DNA of 64,000 nt from an uncultured Oscillospiraceae bacterium (GCA_964369965.1 CAYJGF010000006.1:2321-66320), one strand, 5' to 3'; shown: positions 7,911 to 52,644, counted from the first letter of the stretch. Numbers and translations: made by a program. The notes: generated by a model not told the origin, from the letters alone.

Positions 7911-8004
7911 GGGTGTAGGGGCGGTATCTATTTCCGCCCGACCCTGACCGTCGTCGTATATTTCGGGCGGCTATGGAATCCACCCCTACAACATGACCAT
8001 TTGA
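7911..8004. repeat. Intergenic structured repeat, copy A (GTAGGGGCGG ... CCACCCCTACAAC)
   Basis: Imperfect inverted repeat gtgtaggggcgg (7913..7924) / ccacccctacaac (7980..7992) with an internal GGGGCGG-n9-CCGCCC hairpin. It shares the CCCCTACAAC core with copies at 12415, 18021, 28616 and 51225. Confidence 0.7.
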
Positions 8005-8445
8005 TTATTCGCTGTCTTTATCCATGCTCTGCTTCAACTTATAGACCGCGTTTTTTAATACGGTCGGGAGTGGCACGCCGAGACCGCCGAGGTTTTCGAG
8101 GATGGAGATAGCCTCATTTACACAAAGCCAGATGGTGACCGTGACGGTGAGCATCTGAAAAAGGCTTTGCGGCACACCGGTTATCGGTGCAAAATTCAAC
8201 ATAAGATACTCTATCCCCACCGTGGTCGCTACCAATACCCAGTAGCCGACCTTTTTTATTGCGCCCTTTATGCCGACCTTGCTGGACAGCTCGCCACTGT
8301 CGATTGCGAGAAGAATTCCACTGCCATAGTCCAATACATTTGTTACAAACAGGATAATGAATAACGGTGTGTAAGGGCAAAACCATTGCCAGAAGGCTCC
8401 GGCGAGCGCACTGAGGGCCAGTATTGCTGTTTTAGATTCGTTCAT
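8005..8445 (-). CDS. Phage holin (LL-H/TcdE-like, holin_4 type)
   Basis: Four TM helices. Characteristic LDYGSGILLAI...KGAIKKVGYW...CVNEAISILENL motifs. Sits directly after a lysin gene. Confidence 0.85.
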   Translation of the reverse strand: MNESKTAILALSALAGAFWQWFCPYTPLFIILFVTNVLDYGSGILLAIDSGELSSKVGIKGAIKKVGYWVLVATTVGIEYLMLNFAPITGVPQSLFQMLTVTVTIWLCVNEAISILENLGGLGVPLPTVLKNAVYKLKQSMDKDSE

Positions 8446-8539
8446 GTTTGCCGTCCTTTCTTTTGTATAGACATTTAACCCTGAAAAACATGCGATATTA
8501 TTGCAAAGATGAGTTGGTCCTCAGGGTTAAATTACTATT

Positions 8540-9292
8540 TTATTCTATAGCGGTGAACGCCTGATAATTTATCCATTTGCCGTCCTCGGTGCGGTAGAAC
8601 TCACAGTCGGCGGTCTGCTCCACCAAAATCACCTCACGGTTGATAACACCAACCGGTGTCGCGTTGATGTCCGGCACGGTGCGCAAATTCCAGTTGCCGA
8701 AGTTAATTAGCCCCTTTTTTTTTATGACGGTGATGTCGTTTTGCGGCTCGTCACGTAGCCATGTGTATCCGCCCTCGTCCAATATGGTTACATCGGGACC
8801 CAGCCACAGCATGTCGTTGACCGGCACCTGATCCTCTATTATATAGACGCCGTAGCTGTTTTGGAACTGTATCGCATTCTTCCATCTGCCACGTCCGCAC
8901 TCGATATGCAGATGGTCGGCAAATTTCCCCGGCACACCGCCGCTCATGCCGCCCTCTTCATAGAAAAAGGCACCGAAAGGAATGATATCCCCCTCGTTAA
9001 AATAAAAGTCCTCGCCATGGATAAGCAGTATTTTTGCATAGTCCTGTGTGCCGTCTGCCCAGAGGACCGGCTGTGTGCTCTCGATATACATTTCGCCGTT
9101 GGCATTGCGGCGTGTGCGCACCACCTTTGCCTCAAACGGGCAGTAACATTTATCTTTGCCGGTGTCTTTGCCGCCGAGGTCGAGCGCCCACGAGCCGGTA
9201 TGACTGTAGGTTTTTTTCACCGTTCCGTCGGCATTGAAGCCATACCCCTGAGTGACCCTTAAATATTCCATAAGAAATCTTGCTTTATTCAT
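8540..9292 (-). CDS. Endolysin candidate: M23-like metallopeptidase with a C-terminal SH3-like wall-binding region
   Basis: SHTGSWALDLGG (H..D) and ADHLHIE (HxH) resemble LytM/M23 signatures. It is adjacent to the holin. The ATG at 9292 is preferred over the TTG at 9304. Confidence 0.6.
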   Translation of the reverse strand: MNKARFLMEYLRVTQGYGFNADGTVKKTYSHTGSWALDLGGKDTGKDKCYCPFEAKVVRTRRNANGEMYIESTQPVLWADGTQDYAKILLIHGEDFYFNEGDIIPFGAFFYEEGGMSGGVPGKFADHLHIECGRGRWKNAIQFQNSYGVYIIEDQVPVNDMLWLGPDVTILDEGGYTWLRDEPQNDITVIKKKGLINFGNWNLRTVPDINATPVGVINREVILVEQTADCEFYRTEDGKWINYQAFTAIE

Positions 9293-9371
9293 AGTTGTGA
9301 CCAAACCTTTCTTGTAATAATTTTCATTACTACAATATATGCTACAACCGATGTTTTTGTTTTTAGTGGGC

Positions 9372-9581
9372 TTATGTTTCTAAACTGTCAAGTCTTTGCT
9401 CGATACTGTCCAGGCGCAGCGACAACTCCTCGACAAGGGCGTTGTGTCGCTCAATTGCGAGGGTTGGCAGTCGGTCGAACATGCGTTGCAACTCCGCCGA
9501 CTCCCCACGCCAGTGCAGTTTCACACCCTCTATGCGATTTTCCTCAATCTCCTGCTGTGATATGCCGTACTCGTTTAACAT
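9372..9581 (-). CDS. Small coiled-coil phage protein, unknown function
   Basis: 69-aa ORF in the operon, with a heptad-like C-terminus (LVEELSLRLDSIEQRLDSLE). Confidence 0.5.
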   Translation of the reverse strand: MLNEYGISQQEIEENRIEGVKLHWRGESAELQRMFDRLPTLAIERHNALVEELSLRLDSIEQRLDSLET

Positions 9582-9596
9582 AACTTTCCTCCTTTA

Positions 9597-11495
9597 TTAT
9601 TTTGCAAACCCCTCGTCGGTGTATGTTTTAGTTAGTTGATATACACCAAAACCCTCGTCCGGTTGAGAATTCTCTATCCGAAATTGCATGTTGTTGTATC
9701 GTTTGACCTTTTTGTTGAAGAAATAACGACCGGGATCAACTGCGGTGGAAAAACTCAGCGAGTTAAAATCAAACTCATCAAAGTCGAGGCGTGCAAAAAA
9801 CACCTCATCCACCACCTCGAACTCCCCACCGTCGACAGCTACAGATATGATGGCGGAGGTTTTGGGGAAGTCTTTGAGCACGATCATGCCGCCCTTTTTC
9901 TGCATTGTTTTAAACCGTGTCGGCAGGTCGTCGTCGTCAATCCTCGTCTCCCAAAAAGCCCTTATACTCACACCGTCGTCCATGAAACGCTCCGGGTCGG
10001 TCTCGTCGGTCACATACCGCAGTACCCTGCCGTCCTCGGTGCCGACATAGAGTGTGCCGAGCTCCACCACAAATCGCCTTGCCGCAACTCCTGTCCAAAA
10101 ATAACCGTCGTAGACAAATTGGGAGTTTTCAAAAGCCGCGTCGGTACGGTGACGGTTGTCCAAAAGATAAATATTGCCACCCACCCCGAGCATATAAAAA
10201 CTCTTATAGCTGACCGCACAAGCAGAGCTTAAATCCTGTTCCGTGAGCAGTTTGCCGTCGATATGATAGGATCTGTTTTGCAGTGTTCGTTCCGAGTTGA
10301 CCGTGTCGGTGGTTACGGCGAGCACACCTGTCCTTGATAAAAACATCGGCTCGTCCTGAAGTGAGGCAAAGCAGTCGGTCGAGACCGCACCGGCACCGCT
10401 CATGCCGGCGGTTATCTCGTAGACTACCTCGTCGGTAAGCTCCCGATAACTTCGTTTGTAGAGTGACACCTCCTTGCCGGTATCCTCCTTGATAATAAGT
10501 TGGTCGGCGCCTATCTTTTGATAACCCATGATGCGATAGTTTTGGTCACCGAACACCGTCTTTGAGTCCTCGGCAAAAAAAAGCGCGTCGTTCACGTTGC
10601 TCACCCAATCACATGCCGGTTGCTCGGGATTGCCGGCGATATAGAGCCGATTTTCACCGTCCGGACCGTAAAATGTCGCGATGGTACAGCGTTGCAACGG
10701 GCTTTCCGGTTGGTCGGCATCAAAATATGTGAAAAAGACATTGCAATCATAGCCGTATGGGGTTAGTCGGACATCATAATCCAGCGATATATAGCCGGTC
10801 GACGGGTTATAACTGTAGGCAGTGGTAGGTATTATGTCGATACTGCTTGTCCTCAAAGCGGAATTATAGTTGCTCGCCTCCATATAATACGGTTTTGACA
10901 TATCCACCCGACCGGAGACATACAGGTTTATCGCGCCACCCTCGGTGAAAAAGCCCTCTTTCACCTTGCGAGAGAGTGCGTTGCCGGGATAGGTGTTGGT
11001 GATGAGATTGGCGGAATGGGCACGTTCGATAATGAGCGGCACGGTCACATACTCGTCCACGTCCACAATCCTCACCCCATCATATGCGAGCCATTTTTCT
11101 CCGGTCATGATTATCGCTATTATCCGCTCGCCGTACATGTAGGAGACACAGCTGCTTTTCGTATCGTTCACATTTTCGGCGAGCAATATCGGTTGAAAAG
11201 CCCCCTCCAACGACACGCGGTAAATCTCATTACCGCTATGCACTAAAATGTGCCGATCTTCACCTATGTTACAGCCGTGTATGCCGTTTATTCTGCCGGG
11301 TAGGGCGCAGACGCGCTTAAAACCGGAGCGTTTTTCCGGCATACCGGCGCCGTCACCTATCATATTCTCGGCGTAGGGCGCCCTGTCTCTGTCCACCGTC
11401 AGTGCGGTGCCGGAGAAATTCACCCCTTTAAACGCACCGTAGGTGGTGGTATAGGTTTTTTGCTCGGGGGGGAGTGTCAAGATATTCATCACCAC
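9597..11495 (-). CDS. Large phage structural protein (tail or nozzle candidate), unassigned
   Basis: 632-aa ORF downstream of the head genes. It overlaps the preceding ORF by 7 nt. I recognise no motif; the assignment is by position only. Confidence 0.45.
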   Translation of the reverse strand: MVMNILTLPPEQKTYTTTYGAFKGVNFSGTALTVDRDRAPYAENMIGDGAGMPEKRSGFKRVCALPGRINGIHGCNIGEDRHILVHSGNEIYRVSLEGAFQPILLAENVNDTKSSCVSYMYGERIIAIIMTGEKWLAYDGVRIVDVDEYVTVPLIIERAHSANLITNTYPGNALSRKVKEGFFTEGGAINLYVSGRVDMSKPYYMEASNYNSALRTSSIDIIPTTAYSYNPSTGYISLDYDVRLTPYGYDCNVFFTYFDADQPESPLQRCTIATFYGPDGENRLYIAGNPEQPACDWVSNVNDALFFAEDSKTVFGDQNYRIMGYQKIGADQLIIKEDTGKEVSLYKRSYRELTDEVVYEITAGMSGAGAVSTDCFASLQDEPMFLSRTGVLAVTTDTVNSERTLQNRSYHIDGKLLTEQDLSSACAVSYKSFYMLGVGGNIYLLDNRHRTDAAFENSQFVYDGYFWTGVAARRFVVELGTLYVGTEDGRVLRYVTDETDPERFMDDGVSIRAFWETRIDDDDLPTRFKTMQKKGGMIVLKDFPKTSAIISVAVDGGEFEVVDEVFFARLDFDEFDFNSLSFSTAVDPGRYFFNKKVKRYNNMQFRIENSQPDEGFGVYQLTKTYTDEGFAK

Positions 11496-12358
11496 CCCCG
11501 TTCGTTGATGAATTCACTCTCGGTGCCGGTGTTGAGACGGGCGCGGAGCATCTCATAGCTGTTCCAATAATATGTTGCCTTACGCTCGTCATCGTCCAAA
11601 AATACACGGTTTGCCATCAAGAGCGGCAAAAGTGGGGAAAGACCGTCCGACAGTTCTATGATTTCATCGTCCGGCGTTAGGGAGTCTATCCTCTTATGTC
11701 GGCGACGATATCGTATCTCAATTTCCCCCTCATAATCGCTCGGCAGGCTGATCACACCATCCGTGATTTCGCACCCTATGTCGAGGGCGTTGACTCCGTT
11801 TTTCACTGTCACGCCCTGTCCTACAAGACCGGCAAAACCATCTCCCACAAGGCGGTGCATGTCGTAGTAGACCCGTTCGCCACCCTGAGGGATATCGTCC
11901 AAAGTCTGCCCTCTAAGCCGCCCATACATCGCTACGGCGCGGATATTAAAGTCGTGCTCCCCCTCAAAACTCAAGGTGAGAGAACCGCTTGCAAACCCTT
12001 TGTAGGGTGAAAATGTGCCGTTAGATGATAGTTCTATCTCTTTTGTGCCGTCGTCGTCTATTAAAACCGCCCTGCCGTTGCCGTCGCACTCAAAATAGTA
12101 GGCGCACACCCCCTCGGCACTGTAGGTGGGTGATCCGTACGCGTTGTGAGAGGCTATGGTTGTACTTGCAAGCAGATTGTCGGGCGGTTGTTGATATAGA
12201 GTCGTTCGCCCCTCGAGTGGTCGCACCGTCTCACTTAAAATGTCCAGTGCGGCGTTGGCGGCGATGATAAAACTATCTTTATAGCTGTCATAGACCGCAT
12301 CACTCTCAAAGCCGAGGGCTAACACCTCGTTTTTAAGTTGTCCCCATGTCATTGACAT
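11489..12358 (-). CDS. Phage structural protein (head-tail adaptor or tail candidate), unassigned
   Basis: ORF 11489..12448. The first 30 codons are encoded by the intergenic repeat. The ATG at 12358 (MSMTWGQLKNEV...) has a GGAAAGGA RBS 8 nt upstream. Confidence 0.45.
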   Translation of the reverse strand: MSMTWGQLKNEVLALGFESDAVYDSYKDSFIIAANAALDILSETVRPLEGRTTLYQQPPDNLLASTTIASHNAYGSPTYSAEGVCAYYFECDGNGRAVLIDDDGTKEIELSSNGTFSPYKGFASGSLTLSFEGEHDFNIRAVAMYGRLRGQTLDDIPQGGERVYYDMHRLVGDGFAGLVGQGVTVKNGVNALDIGCEITDGVISLPSDYEGEIEIRYRRRHKRIDSLTPDDEIIELSDGLSPLLPLLMANRVFLDDDERKATYYWNSYEMLRARLNTGTESEFINERGW

Positions 12359-12414
12359 ATCGTTAATCCTTTCCATTGTTATTTTATTGTAGATAATTTT
12401 CGGTGCCGGTCGGG

Positions 12415-12540
12415 AGCGTACCGGCGGGGCGGAAGCGGACAACCGCAAGGGTTGTCCCTACACCCCGACCGGAGGTTATTGATAAAAAAGGCGAAGCCGT
12501 TTCAATAACCATTCACCATTAGACATTAGTCATTAGCCAA
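12415..12540. repeat. Intergenic structured repeat, copy B
   Basis: GGACAACC-gcaa-GGGTTGTCC hairpin, then ctacaccccgaccggagg, ataaaaaaggcgaagccgtttc, attcaccatt, cattag. It is near-identical in blocks to 51300..51411 and 18021..18108. Confidence 0.75.
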
Positions 12541-12702
12541 CCTTGTCGGAGCTTTCGGCTTCCTCGGTTTCCTCGGTGTGAGTTTTTGCTCCTTTTGCGT
12601 CATCTGTGACAGGTAGGTGTCGTCCTTGTTGACCGCTAATATCTCATAGCGCCGCCCCCCCTCGACGAAGATGTCGCCTACCTTTAAACCCTTGTCAACC
12701 AT
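12526..12702 (-). CDS. 58-aa small protein with a basic Pro/Lys tail (below the ORF-track cutoff)
   Basis: Hand translation gives MVDKGLKVGDIFVEGGRRYEILAVNKDDTYLSQMTQKEQKLTPRKPRKPKAPTRLAND*. The ATG lies 4 nt after the capsid stop. The ORF contains a G7 run (12655..12661). Its last codons and stop are supplied by repeat copy B. Confidence 0.4.
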   Translation of the reverse strand: MVDKGLKVGDIFVEGGRRYEILAVNKDDTYLSQMTQKEQKLTPRKPRKPKAPTRLAND

Positions 12703-12705
12703 AGA

Positions 12706-13707
12706 TTAAGTCAAGGTGGTGCCGGTCGTTGCACCGCCGAGGATGATGTGACGCCAGTTGTTAAAGCCGACGCTTGCGCGGAATCTGCCGGAATACTCGA
12801 TACCGTGTGACTTTGTAATCACATCACGTATCACGGTGAGCGGTATTCTGTCGTAGAAAACATTGCCGAGCAGTTCGCGGTTTGCCTCACTGGATAACAC
12901 CATAAAAGGCTCGGTGCCGGAGGCGGCAATCCATCGATGGTTGACGATGAGTTTAAAACGACCTTTAGAGATGTTTATATCGTTGTTGGCACTGCCGACC
13001 TGCAATTCAGAACCGACCACCGCACGAACAGCTCTTTCAAGTGTCGGACAGTTGCCCGGTATGATGATAGTGTCAAATTCATAACCCTGAACATGGCCAC
13101 TGTCGGTCAAGAAGTTGCGTCCGAGATTGGAGAGGCGGTTGAGTATAACATCGTCGGTGCCGAACTCGTTGGTATAGACGTTGGACTGGGTGGTGTCCTC
13201 GTCGTGTTTGGACGGATGGTCGGTGGCAAAAAGCCCCTTTGCATCGCCTGTTTTTTTGTCGATGGACTTGCCACCGTAGGTAAAGGACGCACCCTCTGTG
13301 ACGAGAGCGGTGGTGGCAAAATTTGCCCTACTGCGTTTATAGGCGCGCACAAAGTTGGCGGCGGCGACCTTTGCCTCGTTGAGATATTCATCCTCTGCCA
13401 TCTCGGCGGTCACCTTGAACCCTTTGATGAACTGTCGATGATCGACGAGGGAGGAATACCCCTCCTGAATGTCGTCCAGCACCGCATCGCCCCCCTCCGC
13501 GACAATACTAAAGTCACTAAAGGTGGTGATGGAGGAGACTTTTTCGGCATATCTTTTGGAGGTTTTGACGTTGAAAAGGCTGTTCACCAAAATGTCGTCC
13601 TTGGTGCTGTTTGCCTCCGTCTCCTGAATGATTGCGGTGAGGCGGACGTCGGTGTCCTTGTAAAGTCCGCTGTTAAGTCCGCTGGATTTTGAAAATTCTA
13701 CTGCCAT
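12706..13707 (-). CDS. Major capsid protein candidate
   Basis: 333 aa, immediately after an acidic scaffold-like ORF and the portal gene. Size and position fit an HK97-fold coat protein. No motif-level proof. Confidence 0.6.
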   Translation of the reverse strand: MAVEFSKSSGLNSGLYKDTDVRLTAIIQETEANSTKDDILVNSLFNVKTSKRYAEKVSSITTFSDFSIVAEGGDAVLDDIQEGYSSLVDHRQFIKGFKVTAEMAEDEYLNEAKVAAANFVRAYKRSRANFATTALVTEGASFTYGGKSIDKKTGDAKGLFATDHPSKHDEDTTQSNVYTNEFGTDDVILNRLSNLGRNFLTDSGHVQGYEFDTIIIPGNCPTLERAVRAVVGSELQVGSANNDINISKGRFKLIVNHRWIAASGTEPFMVLSSEANRELLGNVFYDRIPLTVIRDVITKSHGIEYSGRFRASVGFNNWRHIILGGATTGTTLT

Positions 13708-13760
13708 GATCTATTCCTTTCTTTTGTGTGTATCAGTCTATTGTGACATTTGCCTGTCCC

Positions 13761-14270
13761 CTAACCAACCGCATTCAGTGCGCTGTTGTATATTTCTCGA
13801 AGTCGTGCGGAGTTGGCGTCGGGGAACATCTCCTGCCATTCGGCGAGCTGGTCTCGGGGTATGTCTTTGCCGGTCGGCACCCCGATCGCTCCACCGCTTT
13901 TTACAAGGTGTGCCTTGCCGTCGTCCGACGGGGTAAAGGTGGTCGCCCTACCGGTGGTGGCATAGTAGGCGGTGACTGCGTCCACAAGTCCTGTTTGCAT
14001 CAGTTTTGCATAGTCCTCACCGAGCTGTTCAAGGCTCTCAATCTCGGGATTTATGCTTTTGATGTTTGCAAGGTCCTGCCCCTCCTTTTGTTTTAGTGTC
14101 AAGGTTTTGAGCAATTTTTCATAGAGGGACTCCTCGTTGCCTGCCTCCTCCTGCTCCGGTTCCGGCGCTTGTTCCTCTGCCGTCAGGGTGCTCACCTCTA
14201 CCGGCTCCTCCTCAAACTGCCCTACCTCGTCGGCAGTTATCATCTCTTGCGGTGTTTCGTTTAATTCCAT
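13761..14270 (-). CDS. Scaffolding protein candidate
   Basis: 169 aa, very acidic and helical N-terminal half (EEEPVEVSTLTAEEQAPEPEQEEAGNEE). It lies between the portal and capsid genes. Confidence 0.5.
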   Translation of the reverse strand: MELNETPQEMITADEVGQFEEEPVEVSTLTAEEQAPEPEQEEAGNEESLYEKLLKTLTLKQKEGQDLANIKSINPEIESLEQLGEDYAKLMQTGLVDAVTAYYATTGRATTFTPSDDGKAHLVKSGGAIGVPTGKDIPRDQLAEWQEMFPDANSARLREIYNSALNAVG

Positions 14271-14283
14271 TTTTTCCCCTTTC

Positions 14284-14433
14284 TTATAAATCGTTTATTC
14301 GGTAAATTATCCCTTTGTCGGAACAGTTTTTGTTGGTGCAACAGTGATATTGCACCGTCATAAACCGCCCGTTGTAGGGTTCTACCCTATAGTTGTTCAG
14401 GCGCATTGTCGCACTGCATTTCGGGCAGAGCAG
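14284..14433 (-). CDS. Small Cys4 zinc-ribbon ORF overlapping the portal 3' end, with no canonical start codon
   Basis: The frame reads ..KERGVK-LLCPKCSATMRLNNYRVEPYNGRFMTVQYHCCTNKNCSDKGIIYRINDL*. A strong AAGGAGAGG RBS sits 9 nt before a CTG at 14433. The only in-frame ATG after the RBS (14406) would drop the first CxxC. Confidence 0.3.
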   Translation of the reverse strand: MLCPKCSATMRLNNYRVEPYNGRFMTVQYHCCTNKNCSDKGIIYRINDL

Positions 14434-16162
14434 TTTGACGCCCCTCTCCTTGTTGTTCCACCTGGATTGTCCAGTGCTGAACCATGCGCCCTGCGTTCGG
14501 GTAGCCGAGGGCTTCCTTTTCTTTCCAGTATAAAAGGAGTGTCTGCGGCATTTCGGGGTTGCCGAACGCCCCAAGACCGAAGTCGGTGCGCACGTCCTCC
14601 AGCATAAAGCGTCGGTTGTTCGCGATGGTGCCGGACTCGTCCACCGAAAATACAAAGTCGTCCTCATAATACAAGCTCCCGTCCGCGCGTGTCTTTAAAA
14701 AATCCCGTCGGTCGAAGACAAGCTCTTTGCGACTGCCGTCGGTATCGGTGGCGGTATATCCCCGTGGCTCGTCCGCAAAGCTCAGCATAAAGCGGAACAT
14801 ACAGCGAAAGAGATCGGCATATGCTGAGTTTTTCAACATCTGTTTTGTCTGCTGTATACCTATGGTGCGGCTCATAAGCAGCTCCTTTGCCTTGCCGGAG
14901 GTGGCGGACGAGTCCGCATTGCCGAGGAAACTGTCGGTTATACCGAGCACGGCGCGCGCCATCTCATAACAGCGATTTATAACGGTGTAGTCGGCATTTG
15001 CATCGAATTCAAACGCAATACTTTTGAGCATGTCAATCTGGTCGGGGCCTGTGACCGAGAGAACACGCCCCATCTTGTTGGATAGCTCAAACTGCATGTT
15101 GTCCGGTTTTGTCATTATATAGCCGGAGCAGGCTATCTTCTCATCAATCTTCGAGAGCGCCTTGTTTGCCTGCTGTTGCAGTCCGGTTATCGCCTCACAG
15201 TCACTGCCGCCGAAAAATCGACCGAAAAGTGAGTTGTTGCGGCGCACAGCCACGGGGAAATCATTACAGGAATAGTAGGGTACATTCACATCCTCCACCA
15301 TCGGTGTGCCGTCGGGCGATAGCATCACCCTGCCATTTTTGTCCCTTTTCGGTCGGTGCTTTTGCAGGCCGGAGTGATAATCGGTCGACACCGCACGTCG
15401 CTCATACTTTTCACTGCCACACTCACACTGCTCACCCGATTTGATTTTGCCACATGCGACACAACACTTTAGCTTTCGCAGGTGGTAGTCCTCGTTGAAG
15501 AAAAGTTCGGTATCCCCTGCCCAGGATAGCGCACCGAGACCGCCCCTGTCATTTTTAAAATAGCATATAACCTGTGTGACGCGCTCGTTTGACGGTTTCT
15601 CACCGAGGCGCACATCGACACCCTCCTCCGGTTTTATGCCATATCGTTTATATAGGCGCTCTTTCGTGTCCTCAAACACCAGAAAGAAGTAGTCCATCCG
15701 CTCGGTCTCGACAATGCCGGGCTGGGGGATAAATTCAAGAGGAGAGAGGGAGCGCACCGACAGACCGCCTTTGCAACTGCCGGTTCGCAGACTGTTGTCC
15801 CACTCGACAAGATAAACACTGCCGCCCATTATACGGCTTATCCGCTCCTCGGCGTCGTTCATGCGCTCAAACGGCATCCTGTCCATCTCGCACCTTATCA
15901 TCGCCTCAACAACACGTGCAAGCCGAGTATTTTGCTCACTCGGGTGACGGGGGGTGACGAGTGGCATCGGCACATTGGGGTTTATCTGCGCCTCGATAAG
16001 CTCCTTTGTAAAGTTGTAGCTAAGGCGTGCCGGTGCACCGCCCGATATCTCGGTACTGCCCTCGAACTGCCGTTGCCAGGCGGCAAATTTCTCACGATGG
16101 GGGGCAAAGTCGGACAATGCCTCCTCAAAACGTTCTTTATAATATTGGGTTGTCGCTGTCAT
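14387..16162 (-). CDS. Portal protein
   Basis: 591 aa, directly downstream of the large terminase and upstream of scaffold and capsid. It contains an inserted Cys-rich knuckle (KCCVACGKIKSGEQCECGSEKY). Confidence 0.75.
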   Translation of the reverse strand: MTATTQYYKERFEEALSDFAPHREKFAAWQRQFEGSTEISGGAPARLSYNFTKELIEAQINPNVPMPLVTPRHPSEQNTRLARVVEAMIRCEMDRMPFERMNDAEERISRIMGGSVYLVEWDNSLRTGSCKGGLSVRSLSPLEFIPQPGIVETERMDYFFLVFEDTKERLYKRYGIKPEEGVDVRLGEKPSNERVTQVICYFKNDRGGLGALSWAGDTELFFNEDYHLRKLKCCVACGKIKSGEQCECGSEKYERRAVSTDYHSGLQKHRPKRDKNGRVMLSPDGTPMVEDVNVPYYSCNDFPVAVRRNNSLFGRFFGGSDCEAITGLQQQANKALSKIDEKIACSGYIMTKPDNMQFELSNKMGRVLSVTGPDQIDMLKSIAFEFDANADYTVINRCYEMARAVLGITDSFLGNADSSATSGKAKELLMSRTIGIQQTKQMLKNSAYADLFRCMFRFMLSFADEPRGYTATDTDGSRKELVFDRRDFLKTRADGSLYYEDDFVFSVDESGTIANNRRFMLEDVRTDFGLGAFGNPEMPQTLLLYWKEKEALGYPNAGRMVQHWTIQVEQQGEGRQTALPEMQCDNAPEQL

Positions 16163-16175
16163 TTCAATGTCCTTT

Positions 16176-17996
16176 CTATATGTTTATACTTTCCGGCAAA
16201 CCGTATTTATCGCGCATCATCTGCCTTGTCTTTTCGTCGGCGTGAAGATAATCCTCCAACATATCGTCGGTGTAACGGGCTTTTACCGTAGGTTTTGTCA
16301 CCGTTTTGCTCTGCTGATTGCCGGCAAACAGTGCGATAGCGTAGGCGAAAATCCGATCGTCGGTTGCACCGCGGCGGTGTGCCTCCCGCCCGTTTTCGTC
16401 CCGAACAAAGCACAGCATCTCGTCCAGAGTCCCCTCATCATGAATCAGCTCCAAACTGTCCTTACAAAATGCCGCAAAACCGGACAGGATCAGCGGTCGT
16501 GTTATGGAGGTGGTCTTAAAGCCATACCGCGGCTCCCCTCTGCCGGTGTAGCGGTCGACCCGCTCACGCCGATATAGTCTCGGGTACCCCCAACGTCGCA
16601 ACAGCTCATTTGCGTAGATACCGGTGTTCACCTCGCTTGCAATAAGGGCGTCGTTATAATATTTTCCGAGGCAATAAACCTGCTCGGCATATGCGCCCTC
16701 ATCGTATTCGGTATGATATATCGCCACCTGTTCGCCGGTGCGGTTATCCAGCACCTGTGCACAAAAACACTCACTTCCCTCGCCGGCGATGTCACCGCCG
16801 ATGACATACGGCACGCCCTCCTCCGGGCTTTTATAGATGGTGACATCTCCGTTGCAGGTTGAAAATGTGATTTCGCTCGGCGCAGATAGATTGCCGCTTT
16901 TTGCAAAGGAGAACTCGCCCACCTGCAACGGTTCACAGAGCGATGATTTGTGCTGAATAATGCGTTCGTTGTCAAAAACCCCACGCCCTGTGGAGATAAA
17001 GGCATCGTCCACACTGCACGGATACTCCTGCCGTATCAGGCTTTTGTCGAGGTAGCCTTTATATTTTTCGGCATACCAGTGCAGTTGCTCCGCCGACAGC
17101 CCCGTGCTCTTAAGCCACTTCAGTCGCTCATAAAGCCAGCTGTCATGTTTTTTCAGCCTTACATTAAAGCGACGTTTCTCGTTCGCATCGGCAAATTCGA
17201 GATGGTACTCCTCGGTGAGCCACCAGGGATAAAAGAGCGTTATATGGGCGCCACTGTGCCACATGTCGTAGTAGTCGTTGAAGCCGTTCGCCGTCGACTC
17301 GAAAATTTTTATACAGTCGGGGGTGAGCGCCTCACCGAGAGCCGCCTGAACCGGTGCTATACCACACTTCCAAAAGGCACACTCCGAGCCATGTATAAAG
17401 TTGATGGTACGGGAGCGACCGAGCTGACGACCGGCGGTCTCGACGTTCCAGCCGGAGTTTAGTCGTGAAAAACGAAGTTCCCGACGGTTGTTGTATTTTT
17501 CACTCGGGTGGAGCAGTTTCGGCAGGCGATCAAGGATAAATTTCGCCTTGTTTTCAAATATAGTCTCGGCGTTTCGCACATCGTCGGCGACGGTCATGCC
17601 CTCAAAGTTGCGTGAAAGCAGTGTGTTCGCAAGTTGATATGCCGTTATCAATGAGGTGAACCCCTGCTGTCGCCCCTTTAAGACCATTATGGATATGGAG
17701 GATATTTTCCTGTCGCGATAGTCCTGTTTAGCTTTTTTCAACCTGTCGATAAAATCTCGCTGAACCTCGTTGAGGAAAAAAGGGACGGTCTTTCGCTTTT
17801 TGTTCGGTATTAAAAACATCAACTCTATGAGTTTTTCGGGTTTGCATCGCAACTCCTCCACCAATGTGGGGCTGCGAACAATCTCGAGCGCCACCGCACG
17901 ACAAAGGTCGCTGTCCGCCTTTTCGCTTTTTAAAAACTCCCACTGCTTACGGCGTTTGGCGATAAGCAGATCGGCGGTATAATATTTCTCGCTCAT
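16176..17996 (-). CDS. terL: Terminase large subunit
   Basis: 606 aa. Walker-A-like MVLKGRQQGFTSL, a later nuclease-type acidic motif region, and a strong AAGGAGG RBS. The position before the portal gene fits. Confidence 0.8.
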   Translation of the reverse strand: MSEKYYTADLLIAKRRKQWEFLKSEKADSDLCRAVALEIVRSPTLVEELRCKPEKLIELMFLIPNKKRKTVPFFLNEVQRDFIDRLKKAKQDYRDRKISSISIMVLKGRQQGFTSLITAYQLANTLLSRNFEGMTVADDVRNAETIFENKAKFILDRLPKLLHPSEKYNNRRELRFSRLNSGWNVETAGRQLGRSRTINFIHGSECAFWKCGIAPVQAALGEALTPDCIKIFESTANGFNDYYDMWHSGAHITLFYPWWLTEEYHLEFADANEKRRFNVRLKKHDSWLYERLKWLKSTGLSAEQLHWYAEKYKGYLDKSLIRQEYPCSVDDAFISTGRGVFDNERIIQHKSSLCEPLQVGEFSFAKSGNLSAPSEITFSTCNGDVTIYKSPEEGVPYVIGGDIAGEGSECFCAQVLDNRTGEQVAIYHTEYDEGAYAEQVYCLGKYYNDALIASEVNTGIYANELLRRWGYPRLYRRERVDRYTGRGEPRYGFKTTSITRPLILSGFAAFCKDSLELIHDEGTLDEMLCFVRDENGREAHRRGATDDRIFAYAIALFAGNQQSKTVTKPTVKARYTDDMLEDYLHADEKTRQMMRDKYGLPESINI

Positions 17997-18020
17997 TTTG
18001 ACCTCCTTGATTTTAATGTT

Positions 18021-18108
18021 ACAACACGACCATCGGATTTAAATAAAAAAGGCGAAGCCGTCTCCACAACTATTCACTATTCATTATTCACTAAGCACTT
18101 AAGCACGT
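18021..18108. repeat. Intergenic structured repeat, copy C
   Basis: tacaacacgaccatcggatttaaataaaaaaggcgaagccgtctc, followed by a reiterated (t)attcact / cattatt stop-rich tail that abuts the stop of the 79-aa gene. Confidence 0.7.
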
Positions 18109-18348
18109 CTACCCCAACAACTCCTCCAAATTCAAATCCTCCTCCCCCTCCTCCTCCGGTGAGGCGAAACCACACATCTTGTTGGCGAGGTCGATAGCAC
18201 GCAGTGCCACCATGGCGGCCTGATTTTTAAACGTGCATCTATCCTCATCCATCTCGATAGAAGCCTCGCTCGCACTTTGCGCAATACTGCACAACATAGA
18301 AAGCGCTTTTTCCTTTGTCCACTGTGTCTGCATCAAAACCCCTTTCAT
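18109..18348 (-). CDS. 79-aa acidic-tailed protein; possible truncated small terminase subunit
   Basis: First gene of the late operon, directly before terL. ...AAMVALRAIDLANKMCGFASPEEE resembles the C-terminal ...KALELLGKHLGMF... segment of P27-type TerS proteins. No N-terminal HTH is present. Confidence 0.35.
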   Translation of the reverse strand: MKGVLMQTQWTKEKALSMLCSIAQSASEASIEMDEDRCTFKNQAAMVALRAIDLANKMCGFASPEEEGEEDLNLEELLG

Positions 18349-18393
18349 TGATATTTAATAAGTTTTACTAATATTTTATAGTCGATGTCTCAT

Positions 18394-18422
18394 ATTATAA
18401 CCTAAAAAATCAACATTGTCAA
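18394..18422 (-). promoter_or_regulatory. Consensus sigma-70 promoter driving the phage-like late operon
   Basis: The minus strand reads TTGACA, 17 nt, TATAAT (perfect hexamers), 46 nt upstream of the 79-aa gene start. Confidence 0.7.
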
Positions 18423-18461
18423 GAGTTTTTTTAATATTTTAACTCATTTCGTAATTTTATA

Positions 18462-18490
18462 TTGACAAAAAAATCAGTATTTGTTATAAT
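18462..18490 (+). promoter_or_regulatory. Consensus sigma-70 promoter driving the XRE/ImmA genes
   Basis: The plus strand reads TTGACA, 17 nt, TATAAT (perfect hexamers). A leader of about 190 nt precedes the XRE ATG at 18683. Confidence 0.7.
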
Positions 18491-18682
18491 TTCAACATAT
18501 TACACATATATTCGACAGCGTATGACAATTTGAAAATTAAATCGTATCGGCGACATTTATGGAAATTAATATAGAAAATTAACTTAATATATAACTTTAC
18601 GTGAATATATATAATTTTCATATTAAAAGATATACTATATATTGAGCGGTAGTAATAATTAAAAGAAAGGGATAACAACGAG

Positions 18683-19027
18683 ATGAAGATGGAACGTTTA
18701 CGCCACCTACGCAGAGAACAGAATTTAAGCCAAGTAGAGATGGCGAAAATATTTAACGTGCACCAAAGTGCGGTCTGTCAATGGGAGAGCGGTCGGGCCA
18801 ATCCGGACTTTGAAAAACTTAAAAAAATAGCCGGTTATTTCGGTGTGACGGTGGACTACCTTTTAGAGACGGATAGGCAAAACGAAAAAAAATCGCCCAT
18901 CGACGACAAAGGGTCGATGAGCAACTTTGATTTTGCACTGTTTGATGAACTGTCCCACCTTAACGAGACTCAAAAAGAGGATGTTTTAAACTTTGCAAGG
19001 TTTATAAGGCAGAAGAATAATGAATGA
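18683..19027 (+). CDS. XRE-family (Cro/CI-type) HTH transcriptional regulator
   Basis: LRHLRREQNLSQVEMAKIFNVHQSAVCQWESGRANP is a classic HTH_3 domain. Confidence 0.85.
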   Translation: MKMERLRHLRREQNLSQVEMAKIFNVHQSAVCQWESGRANPDFEKLKKIAGYFGVTVDYLLETDRQNEKKSPIDDKGSMSNFDFALFDELSHLNETQKEDVLNFARFIRQKNNE

Positions 19028-19050
19028 ATATAGAGATATTGAGGTAACGA

Positions 19051-19449
19051 ATGTTGAAGCAACTTTACAGCGAAGCGGAGCAAAACAATATTGAGGTGGT
19101 CTATTTCCCAATGGAGAGCTTGACCGCCATCGCCTCGCCCTGCCGTGATGGATATGTCATAGGTATCGACGCCGACCGACTGTCCACCACAGCACATGAG
19201 GCTGTCTGCCTTGCCCACGAGATGGGTCACTGCAAAACAGGGAGTTTTTATAACTTTAACAGCAAATTTGATATTATAGGTCGTCACGAGGCACGCGCGA
19301 ATGCATGGGCTTATAAACGGCTTATCCCCTACGATGAGCTACAGGAGCTATGTGAGCTCGGCACACACGAGGTATGGGAGATTGCGGAGTATTTCGGCGT
19401 GACCGACGAATTCGCGCACAAGGCGCTTTGCTATTATGGGGTGCTTTAG
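19051..19449 (+). CDS. ImmA/IrrE-family zinc metallopeptidase (anti-repressor protease type)
   Basis: HEMGH zinc motif in an approximately 130-aa protein, immediately downstream of an XRE regulator. This is the canonical ImmR/ImmA arrangement. Confidence 0.8.
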   Translation: MLKQLYSEAEQNNIEVVYFPMESLTAIASPCRDGYVIGIDADRLSTTAHEAVCLAHEMGHCKTGSFYNFNSKFDIIGRHEARANAWAYKRLIPYDELQELCELGTHEVWEIAEYFGVTDEFAHKALCYYGVL

Positions 19450-51224: not shown

Positions 51225-51411
51225 GGGTGGCAGGGGCAACCTTCGGTTGTCCGCATGTTCACGGCAAGGGTGTATTCCGATAACCGCGATGATGGGACGT
51301 CGAGGACGCCGCCCCCTACAACCCGACCGGAGGATTTCAATAAAAAAGGCGAAGCCGTTTCCCTAAAACGAAAAAAGCGTTCAGTCATTCACCATTCACC
51401 TTTAGCCATTA
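51225..51411. repeat. Intergenic structured repeat, copy D (longest, composite)
   Basis: GGCAACC-ttc-GGTTGTC hairpin ... gccccctacaacccgaccggaggatttcaataaaaaaggcgaagccgtttc ... cattcaccattcacctttagccattagtc. The rarA stop codon lies inside the terminal gactaatgg motif. Confidence 0.8.
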
Positions 51412-52644
51412 GTCTAAACTCCCCTTTATCTTCCCCCAATAAGCCCTCGCGGCCTGTTCTGTCTTATTGTTGCCGAACTCGTAATATTTCCTGCCCACCA
51501 GTCCGTCCGGGAGGTATTGTTGTTTGACATAGTGATTTTCAAAATCGTGGGGGTAGATATAGGCAGGGGCGGTCTTGCCCTGTTGCAGGTTGTCAAGATG
51601 TCGGGGGAAGTCGCCGTACCCTCCGCGCCGCACGTCCGACATTGCGGCATCTATAGCCGCCTCAGCGGAATTGGACTTCGGTGCGGTGGCGAGCAGTATC
51701 GTCGCCTCGGCAAGTGGAATTCTTGCCTCCGGTAGACCGAGTTGCAGTGCGCTGTCACACAGTGCCTTGACTATCGGCGCCGCCATAGGGTAGGCAAGCC
51801 CGATATCCTCGGCGCATATGACCAGCAGTCGCCGTATCGGTGAGATTATGTCCCCTGCCTCGATAAGCCGTGCGAGATAGTGCAGTGCCGCATTCTCGTC
51901 ACTTCCGCGGATGGACTTTTGCAATCCCGACAGCAGTCGATAGTGGATGTCGCCGTTTTTGTCATAACTGCCGGCGGAATTGCGGATAATCTGCGCGACC
52001 ATCTGCTCCGATATGACCTTTTCCCCGACCGATAGCAGTAACGAGAGGGACAAAAGTGCCTTCCTCATATCACCGCCACTGCCGGCGGCGAGCATCTCGA
52101 GCGCCGTCCCCTCAAAGGTGACCTCGTCACCCGATTTTATAACCGCGCGGTTAAGCCCATGGGTGATATCCTCCACTTCAAGTGGCAGAAATTCAAAGAC
52201 GAGACAACGTGATAGCAGTGCGCCGTAGACATAAAAATAAGGGTTTTCGGTGGTGGAGGCGATGAGAGTTATATCCCCACTCTCCACCGATTCAAGTAAC
52301 GATTGTTGCTGTTTTTTGTTGAGATACTGTATCTCGTCGAGATATAAAAGCACTCCGTTTGTATTGCCGAGCAGACCTATGTCGGCTATCACCGATTTTA
52401 TATCGGCGGTGCCGGCGGAGGTGCCGTTGAGCTTGTGCAATGTCTTACCTGCACCGTCCGAGAGGATGCTCGCGACCGTCGTCTTGCCGATGCCGGGGGG
52501 GCCGTAAAATATCATGTTCGGCAGTTCCCCTGCGGCAAGGGCACGTCGCAGGACGCTCCCCTCGCCGAGGATATGCCGTTGACCAACCACATCGTCGAGG
52601 GTGCGCGGTCGAAGTCGCTCGGCGAGAGGTATGCTGTTATTCAT
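51409..52644 (-). CDS. rarA: Replication-associated recombination protein A (AAA+ ATPase)
   Basis: [28 protein letters not shown]. 411 aa. Confidence 0.92.

Follow-up and report, generated by a model that had tools for sequence, protein, structure and literature searches.

Gene transfer agents (GTAs) have long been known almost only from Alphaproteobacteria. Among them, RcGTA is siphovirus-like and multi-locus, is controlled by the host regulators CtrA and GafA, and has a T=3 head that holds about 4 kb of DNA. The locus described here is an 11.4-kb cassette at positions 8005-19449 of a 64,000-nucleotide stretch from an uncultured Oscillospiraceae bacterium (GCA_964369965.1, CAYJGF010000006.1:2321-66320); this whole stretch is called the window, and all coordinates are positions in it. 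The cassette carries head, short-tail, DNA-packaging, and lysis genes together with its own regulatory switch and, on balance though far from certainly, its sequence points to a domesticated, podovirus-derived GTA-like particle operon that is chromosomal and neither replicates nor excises. Like RcGTA and the other alphaproteobacterial GTAs (viriforms), it appears to be a domesticated head-tail cluster with a small terminase (TerS) devoid of DNA-binding specificity, vertical inheritance, purifying selection, and release by lysis. It differs from RcGTA in having a podovirus-type tail, a single locus, and a phage-type switch.

Long-read virome work published in 2024-2026 has found GTA-type packaging to be common in gut Oscillospirales, and only the FpGTA locus has been tied to it. 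Such packaging was reported in gut Ruminococcaceae, Oscillospiraceae, and Christensenellaceae, with no locus assigned in the Christensenellaceae (PMC12946183). FpGTA, from Faecalibacterium prausnitzii, is encoded by a 10.5-kb podovirus-like operon whose TerS lacks the DNA-binding domain, plus a second fibre and lysis locus (PMC12946183, Nat Commun 2026), and its capsids of ~40 nm were shown experimentally to carry 8.4-8.9 kb of host DNA (PMC12946183). Comparing the two loci, both belong to an Oscillospirales host and consist of a compact chromosomal operon of ~10-11 kb that is conserved across related genomes, lacks integrase and replication genes, and runs in the order TerS (without its DNA-binding domain), large terminase (TerL), portal, scaffold, capsid, and podovirus-type tail genes. 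However, the FpGTA capsid is annotated as N4-gp56 with an adjacent Prp-like protease (RCH50849/RCH50850), whereas the window capsid matched PF25209 and no NCBIfam model, N4-gp56 included, at E<=0.1, and the cassette has no Prp-like open reading frame (ORF). Moreover, FpGTA has its fibre, receptor-binding protein (RBP), holin, and endolysin in the second locus, whereas the window cassette keeps its lysis genes in the same operon, has no RBP, and has an ImmR/ImmA switch attached. FpGTA particles have been demonstrated, whereas the window cassette is known from its genes alone. Orthology with FpGTA through the capsid family was considered and is not supported, since the FpGTA annotations set the two apart, and a scan of genome contigs with the portal pattern returned no Faecalibacterium locus. 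The cassette thus appears to be a variant of a very recently recognised GTA-like kind, a general phenomenon already published, and not an FpGTA orthologue.

A second candidate is the 12.7-kb cluster of QXXE01, a mouse-gut member of the Butyricicoccaceae, described together with core and lysis clusters of Coprocola; hosts of the QXXE01 cluster show uniform coverage by virus-like particle reads (bioRxiv 10.64898/2026.07.08.737213). By description, which is the level at which the two were compared, both are single loci that combine a regulator with terminases (small and large), capsid proteins, a holin, and an endolysin, and both lack integration and replication genes; the regulator is a transcriptional activator there and a repressor/protease pair in the window. 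Among Clostridia and Bacillus, podophages of ~40 kb (such as phage Page of Bacillus and contigs of 40-46 kb in IMG/VR) have homologous portal, capsid, adaptor-like, and nozzle genes in the same order. In contrast to the cassette, those phages have replication genes (Toprim and DnaB in L069), and their proteins are only 24-46% identical to those of the window. These larger phages (40-46 kb; Page) show, as far as gene content can tell, what the cassette has lost. IMG/VR held no close relative, the best portal match being 46% identical.

The structural and lysis genes form one minus-strand operon, and the XRE and ImmA genes lie divergently at one end of the cassette. On the left, the flank consists of gltX and a Prok-RING/DUF2628 protein gene, and on the right of typA and a GFO oxidoreductase gene; the remainder of the window is core chromosome (argG, argH, metG, addAB, a PASTA kinase, and ABC transporters). 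The ORF map reproduced the gene coordinates of an earlier note made on this DNA, as well as the gap of 114 bp that separates the holin end from the gltX-adjacent gene and the overlap of the ImmA stop with the typA stop (19446-19449). Tight packing of the genes, also claimed there, holds generally, with the exception of two gaps of 167 and 112 nt that are both filled by a repeat. The features are as follows, the operon being given in its order of transcription; dN/dS is the ratio of nonsynonymous to synonymous substitution rates, with the window compared to locus L004, its closest relative.

18394-18422, minus strand: promoter of the structural and lysis operon, TTGACA-17-TATAAT, 12/12 consensus matches
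18109-18348, minus strand: truncated small terminase, C-terminal half only; likely start ATG at 18333, giving 74 aa
16176-17996, minus strand: large terminase TerL, 606 aa; phrog_2 (E=8.2e-22) and phrog_24361
14387-16162, minus strand: portal, 591 aa; phrog_156 (E=2.8e-28), weak PF16510 P22_portal match; dN/dS 0.085
14284-14439, minus strand: small Zn-ribbon ORF, ~50 aa, which overlaps the portal gene at its 3' end
13761-14270, minus strand: acidic scaffolding-like protein, 169 aa, between portal and capsid; dN/dS 0.24
12706-13707, minus strand: major capsid protein, 333 aa; PF25209 Phage_capsid_4 (E=4.3e-6), phrog_371 (E=2.4e-11)
12526-12702, minus strand: 58-aa ORF downstream of the capsid gene, 54-55 aa in L004 and L005; dN/dS 0.26
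11489-12358, minus strand: probable head-to-tail adaptor, 289 aa, between capsid and nozzle, a position as that of T7 gp11; dN/dS 0.066
9597-11495, minus strand: tail nozzle or tail hub (T7 gp12/P22 gp10 type), 630-632 aa, identified with AlphaFold2 (AF2) and Foldseek; dN/dS 0.039
9372-9581, minus strand: N-terminal stub of a tail fibre, 69 aa, receptor-binding part missing
8540-9304, minus strand: M23 metallo-endopeptidase lysin, 254 aa; likely true start ATG at 9292
8005-8445, minus strand: holin, 146 aa, last operon gene; PF05105 Phage_holin_4_1 (E=1.6e-29), TIGR01593
18462-18497, plus strand: XRE/ImmA promoter and candidate operator, TTGACA-17-TATAAT with a TG extension, 12/12
18683-19027, plus strand: XRE-family (ImmR-like) repressor, 114 aa; PF01381 HTH_3 (E=5e-15)
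19051-19449, plus strand: ImmA/IrrE-type metalloprotease, 132 aa; PF06114 Peptidase_M78 (E=8.6e-9), HEMGH motif intact

The small terminase fits a GTA reading. The earlier note had called the 79-aa ORF TerS-like; the relationship stands, although the ORF covers no more than the C-terminal half of a TerS. Upstream of TerL, locus L022 encodes a 149-aa protein, to whose residues 70-141 the window ORF aligns with its residues 10-78 (BLASTP E=4e-9); the L022 protein itself has a match to Pfam Terminase_2 (residues 5-141) that stays under the gathering score (E=4.7e-4). The short form is kept in L004, L005, and L009, and the position of the operon promoter leaves no space for an N-terminal domain before the start codon. 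The missing half is presumably the DNA-recognition domain, as generally known for this TerS family, and by analogy with RcGTA and FpGTA we infer that the window TerS is without DNA-recognition specificity. TerL is 91% and 81% identical in L004 and L005, respectively, with a dN/dS of 0.034. Together, TerL and the shortened TerS would package DNA with little or no sequence specificity and would fill capsids headful-wise with chromosomal DNA, again by analogy with RcGTA and FpGTA.

The earlier note had recognised a repressor switch of XRE and ImmA/IrrE genes, and the matches to PF01381 and PF06114 and the HEMGH motif bear this out. The layout is of the ImmR/ImmA type, with an XRE helix-turn-helix gene followed by an M78 (HEXXH) gene, both divergent from the operon. 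The repressor is 94% and 83% identical in L004 and L005 (dN/dS 0.095), and ImmA, with a dN/dS of 0.050, has the same 4-nt overlap with the typA stop in L004. Between the two divergent units lies a switch region of 335 bp, whose two back-to-back promoters both match the consensus at 12/12 positions and which is conserved far above synonymous sites. The operon promoter block is kept in L004 and L005 despite saturated synonymous sites, and the block TTGTTATAATTTCAACA at 18481-18497 is invariant in the three genomes; a candidate operator, TGTT-N8-AACA, overlaps the -10 element of the XRE/ImmA promoter. The XRE repressor would bind here and keep the consensus operon promoter off until a stress or population signal activates the ImmA-type protease, which, judging from its family, would then remove the repressor. 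Removal of the repressor by an ImmA-type protease is the mode of the ICEBs1 and phi105-type switches. If transcription starts from the promoter at 18462-18490, the XRE leader is ~190 nt, unusually long, and AT-rich (18490-18683), and it may hold further promoters or operators.

To see how the cassette has evolved, its nearest relatives are the most informative. Among 576 portal homologues, just three exceed 58% identity. L004 (portal 87% identical) matches the window in gene content, gene order, and location at typA up to the end of its contig, whereas at L005 (74%) the cassette, complete from ImmA through to holin, has other neighbour genes; both are metagenome-assembled genomes (MAGs) of uncultured Oscillospiraceae. 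The earlier note had named synteny in related genomes and dN/dS as checks, and both came out in favour of a maintained locus. In the window, L004, and L005 alike, every ORF is intact, and none of the 11 comparable genes has a frameshift. In all 11 comparable genes dN/dS is 0.025-0.26, far below 1, at near-saturated dS values of 0.5-2.1 (window against L004); the flanking typA and GFO genes have dN/dS values of 0.036 and 0.083 and dS values of 0.76 and 1.49. Toward L005, synonymous sites are saturated and cassette proteins are 60-84% identical, close to the host proteins gltX (86%), trpS (84%), and RING/DUF2628 (74%). GC, GC3, and relative synonymous codon usage of the cassette genes all fall within the range of host genes.

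These data bear directly on the possibility that the cassette is a defective prophage remnant, that is, the late half of a temperate podophage after loss of its integrase and replication genes, with no particle function and perhaps with lysis genes or a repressor useful to the host. The gene set is indeed what would stay after deletion of the early region from a prophage of the immR-immA-int type, the abutment of ImmA on typA is as expected from a lost terminal integrase, and both the fibre and TerS are truncated. However, strong purifying selection acts on 11/11 comparable genes, the two truncated ORFs among them; the reading frames are undamaged in three genomes; the promoters are perfect and conserved; and the truncated forms are themselves conserved. 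We therefore regard a remnant as quite unlikely. As read from the sequences, neither neutral decay nor recent arrival fits the selection, codon-usage, and switch-conservation data, and the interpretation in the earlier note is supported: the relatives, the dN/dS values, the absence of att repeats, and the codon usage all favour a particle locus that is maintained without being autonomous over a newly arrived lysogen or a remnant in decay. Because TerL, TerS, and the portal are under purifying selection, packaging itself appears to matter.

In agreement with the gene content first described, scans of the cassette ORFs against Pfam, PHROGs, and NCBIfam found no integrase, recombinase, excisionase, primase, helicase, or polymerase family in any of them. 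No att-like direct or inverted repeats were found at the cassette ends beyond one 11-mer chance match, which upholds the earlier observation that flanking direct repeats are absent, and a tRNA scan and an Rfam search of the window gave no matches. As the locus is without replication or excision functions, it would not be amplified and would be inherited vertically.

Small elements without a full phage gene set may also be satellites, which carry an integrase, att sites, and a replication module, the capsid-forming phage-inducible chromosomal islands (cf-PICIs) being without tail genes. The cassette resembles cf-PICIs as a small chromosomal element with its own capsid and packaging genes and no full set of phage genes. 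In contrast to satellites and cf-PICIs, it has no integrase, att sites, or replication module, and it has a nozzle and a probable adaptor. As a helper-dependent satellite it would supply its own head and tail core and obtain integration, replication, and receptor-binding fibres from a co-resident phage of ~40 kb and the same family. The parts it lacks (integrase, replication, RBP) are what such a helper could provide, the fibre is reduced to an attachment stub, ImmR/ImmA switches are typical of mobile elements, and the neighbourhoods differ in L005, L009, and L013-L018; the authors of the 12.7-kb Butyricicoccaceae cluster likewise noted the likeness of their cluster to capsid-forming satellites (bioRxiv 10.64898/2026.07.08.737213). 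The cassette nonetheless has no integrase, att repeat, or replication gene, features that define known satellites, and a TerS without its N-terminal part speaks against selective self-packaging. In addition, the divergence and type of the cassette track the host, its codon usage is fully host-like, and the same site is occupied at a dS of ~1. Since these genomes are generally scrambled in gene order, a change of neighbours does not have to reflect transposition: of the genes that surround the window cassette, just typA and GFO are shared even with L004. The different neighbourhood of L005 was considered as proof of mobility and rejected, because the order downstream of RING/DUF2628 differs in every relative examined. 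Taken together, we consider a satellite quite improbable.

The portal belongs to a family with a four-Cys (Zn-ribbon-like) insertion (C234, C237, C246, and C248, residues ~234-248), in which C234, C237, and C248 are invariant among aligned homologues. The profiles of portal and capsid, compared with PDB sequences, gave nothing or only weak Mu GpT-like matches. The separate Zn-ribbon ORF, as the earlier note had named it, keeps its CPxC...CC...C cysteine pattern in the window, L004, and L005, with tblastn identities of 78% and 56%. The capsid protein is 96% and 84% identical in L004 and L005 and has the lowest dN/dS, 0.025. The scaffold measures 169-187 aa in the window clade versus mostly 245-300 aa in related loci, i.e. 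it is ~100 aa shorter, which may bear on procapsid size.

The earlier note had proposed profile and structure searches for the ORFs that follow, and these identified a true podovirus nozzle and an M23 lysin. The AF2 model of the 632-aa ORF, built from a 46-sequence alignment, reached a pLDDT of 87.6, and its best Foldseek matches in the PDB were all podovirus nozzle or tail-hub proteins (9k09_U with E=1.2e-17, 9nwi_Y, 8zkk_O, 7boy_s, and 8eap_D). The structures matched come from cyanophage A4, Pa223, VP1, T7 (gp12), P22 (gp10), and Sf6, with E values from 1e-17 to 1e-10. The sequence profile against the PDB matches 'Tail tubular protein B', and the ORF also falls into phrog_3287, a virion structural protein; the model thus identifies the 632-aa ORF as a podovirus nozzle. 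For the 289-aa ORF, the profile gave a weak match to 'Head to tail adaptor Gp50' (9d83_B, E=8.7e-4), 22/31 homologues matched the unannotated family phrog_13046, and a single-sequence AF2 model had a pLDDT of 30. From its sequence match and its place in the operon, it is probably the head-to-tail adaptor. In the assembly proposed here, the portal, the short scaffold, and the capsid would form the head, which the probable adaptor, the nozzle, and the 69-aa stub would then close.

The lysin ORF had no Pfam match; the profile of 55 homologues matched the M23 domain of phi29 gp13 (3csq_A, 'Morphogenesis protein 1', residues 167-329) with E=5.2e-31, which confirms the M23-like lysin of the earlier reading, and gave weak matches to LytM, lysostaphin, and ShyA. 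The gp13-like catalytic domain spans residues ~5-185 and is followed by a C-terminal extension of ~65 aa; the columns H35, D42, H131, and H133 are nearly invariant. The lysin is 81% and the holin 65% identical in L005. Holin and endopeptidase together would lyse the producer cell and release the particles.

The 69-aa ORF corresponds to the start of a tail fibre: in the sister cassettes L013-L018 the nozzle is followed by fibres of 347-490 aa, and the ORF aligns to residues 1-55 of these. It is kept as an ORF of 67-74 aa in L004 and L005 (dN/dS 0.066). A tblastn search of the 64-kb window with the fibres of the sister clade returned this stub only. The statement that the cassette keeps everything needed to build, fill, and release a particle was therefore too strong, as the fibre is a stub and the window holds no receptor-binding or ejection proteins.

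Several points weigh against a GTA-like particle. Since no receptor-binding fibre, tailspike, or ejection protein was found in the window, delivery to recipients is doubtful unless an RBP locus exists elsewhere, as operon II of FpGTA does. Phage Page, by comparison, carries a much larger set of tail proteins, among them a tailspike, a fibre, a lytic fibre, and one protein of 1679 aa. The GTA hallmark of a capacity smaller than the locus may also fail, namely if the capsid holds ~40 kb. The switch is a typical ImmR/ImmA module of mobile elements and not a host regulator. Finally, this cassette type is present in 3-4 genomes only, all of them MAGs, and the gene order around it is not kept beyond the closest relative, so that past mobility is possible.

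The loss of the receptor-binding fibre, which makes productive adsorption doubtful, also raises the question of whether a domesticated particle might serve a role other than transfer, for instance programmed altruistic lysis with release of extracellular DNA, or killing or decoy activity of a PBSX-like particle into which DNA is packaged but from which none is delivered. PBSX is a DNA-packaging defective phage that serves another purpose (discussed in PMC12946183), and the lysis genes of the cassette have been kept in the same operon. The purifying selection on TerL, TerS, and the portal, however, implies that packaging matters; a podovirus tail without fibres has no obvious killing mechanism; and the sister cassettes keep full fibres. 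A non-transfer role is on these grounds unlikely. Our preferred reading is still a GTA-like particle operon, in which transfer of host DNA would be the outcome. Two features that had escaped the earlier note, the N-terminally truncated TerS and an integrase-less clade that tracks its hosts, fit a GTA.

That clade comprises a second cassette type, found at L013-L018 in related Oscillospiraceae MAGs and measuring ~11.5-13.6 kb (e.g. L016, 7750-19400). It runs in the order small terminase, TerL, portal, scaffold, capsid, adaptor-like protein, nozzle, full fibres, Amidase_2 lysin, and holin. The fibres are full length, one with a GDSL domain, and the type-2 proteins are 58-94% identical among themselves. 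Wherever the flank is present, host genes lie directly upstream of TerL (URO-D, AraC, NagB, and a histidine kinase at L013-L018; PdxS/T at L009), and no integrase was seen upstream of TerL in the available flanks of L009 and L013-L018. At L016, host genes are also found beyond the lysis end. Locus L007 has the same layout, with a CI/S24 repressor abutting host genes in place of ImmR/ImmA; no repressor gene was seen within ~700 bp upstream of the sister cassettes L013-L018. In a neighbor-joining tree of portals, the integrase-less cassettes form one clade together with three further loci, L006, L055, and L056. Because the two type-1 hosts form one group by host markers and the two type-2 hosts another, the cassette type tracks the host clade. 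One MAG, CAYJKW, yields two of the sister loci, L014 and L015.

Tentatively, then, a whole clade of uncultured Oscillospiraceae may have inherited a self-contained, single-operon, podovirus-derived particle machine of 13-14 genes and ~11.4 kb, in some members with an ImmR/ImmA or CI-type switch. This machine would have arisen independently of FpGTA and would be a source of the GTA-type packaging that is seen in gut Oscillospiraceae and Christensenellaceae but so far assigned to no locus, and the lineage of the window would have been reduced further by giving up its fibre. The cassette and its sister clade are in this sense candidate loci of a second, non-orthologous lineage with a readable switch and a very small gene set. 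If active, they would show how few genes a DNA-packaging, short-tailed particle requires, and they would help to predict in which gut Clostridia chromosomal DNA is exchanged by means of capsids.

More distant homologues were found outside these cassettes. Cultured Christensenella and Marasmitruncus massiliensis have distant homologues of single genes (portal or nozzle), which suggests a possible route to experiments. Christensenella sp. Marseille-P2438 (L012, LT700187.1), C. tenuis NSJ-35 (L010), and L054 have a related portal/capsid/nozzle module. At L012 the host genes nrdD/nrdG are followed directly by the start of the module, where a weak match to ImmA (26%) is accompanied by an XRE gene and a sigma-70-region-4 protein; no integrase was seen at this end. 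The sole portal matches in the GenBank phage collection were L001-L003 (MT836833, MT836592, and MT837280), scaffolds from human faecal samples of Mexico that are recorded without annotation as 'Bacteriophage sp.' and have a portal-capsid-adaptor-nozzle module at ~26-35% identity. Contigs of ~11.2 kb with nozzle homologues were considered as a free 11-kb genome and rejected, as they are ordinary fragments, one of which ends in host genes.

The only two large gaps in the operon are filled by copies of an intergenic repeat, 77% identical to each other.

12459-12520, minus strand: repeat copy 1, within the 167 nt that separate the 58-aa ORF from the adaptor gene; core ACGGCTTCGCCTTTTTTAT
18020-18081, minus strand: repeat copy 2, inside the 112-nt gap between the TerS fragment and TerL

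The earlier note had described a host repeat with two copies inside the operon; these are real, and a third lies outside the cassette at 51260-51420 (core 51340-51358). The repeat is ~60-100 nt long, its core ACGGCTTCGCCTTTTTTAT is preceded by TAATG-rich sequence, and the 64 kb contain three copies, which all face the same way with respect to minus-strand genes. It is absent from the 134 related loci compared, L004 and L005 included. Because it is absent from L004, where the gap between TerS and TerL is just 20 nt, the copy at this position would have been gained after the split from L004. Its insertion is consistent with long residence of the cassette. As for a function as terminator or antiterminator, only a weak hairpin followed by a T-run was found. 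A short motif of the copy at 12459-12520, GGGTGTAGGG, recurs at 7911-7920, in the spacer at the left boundary of the cassette.

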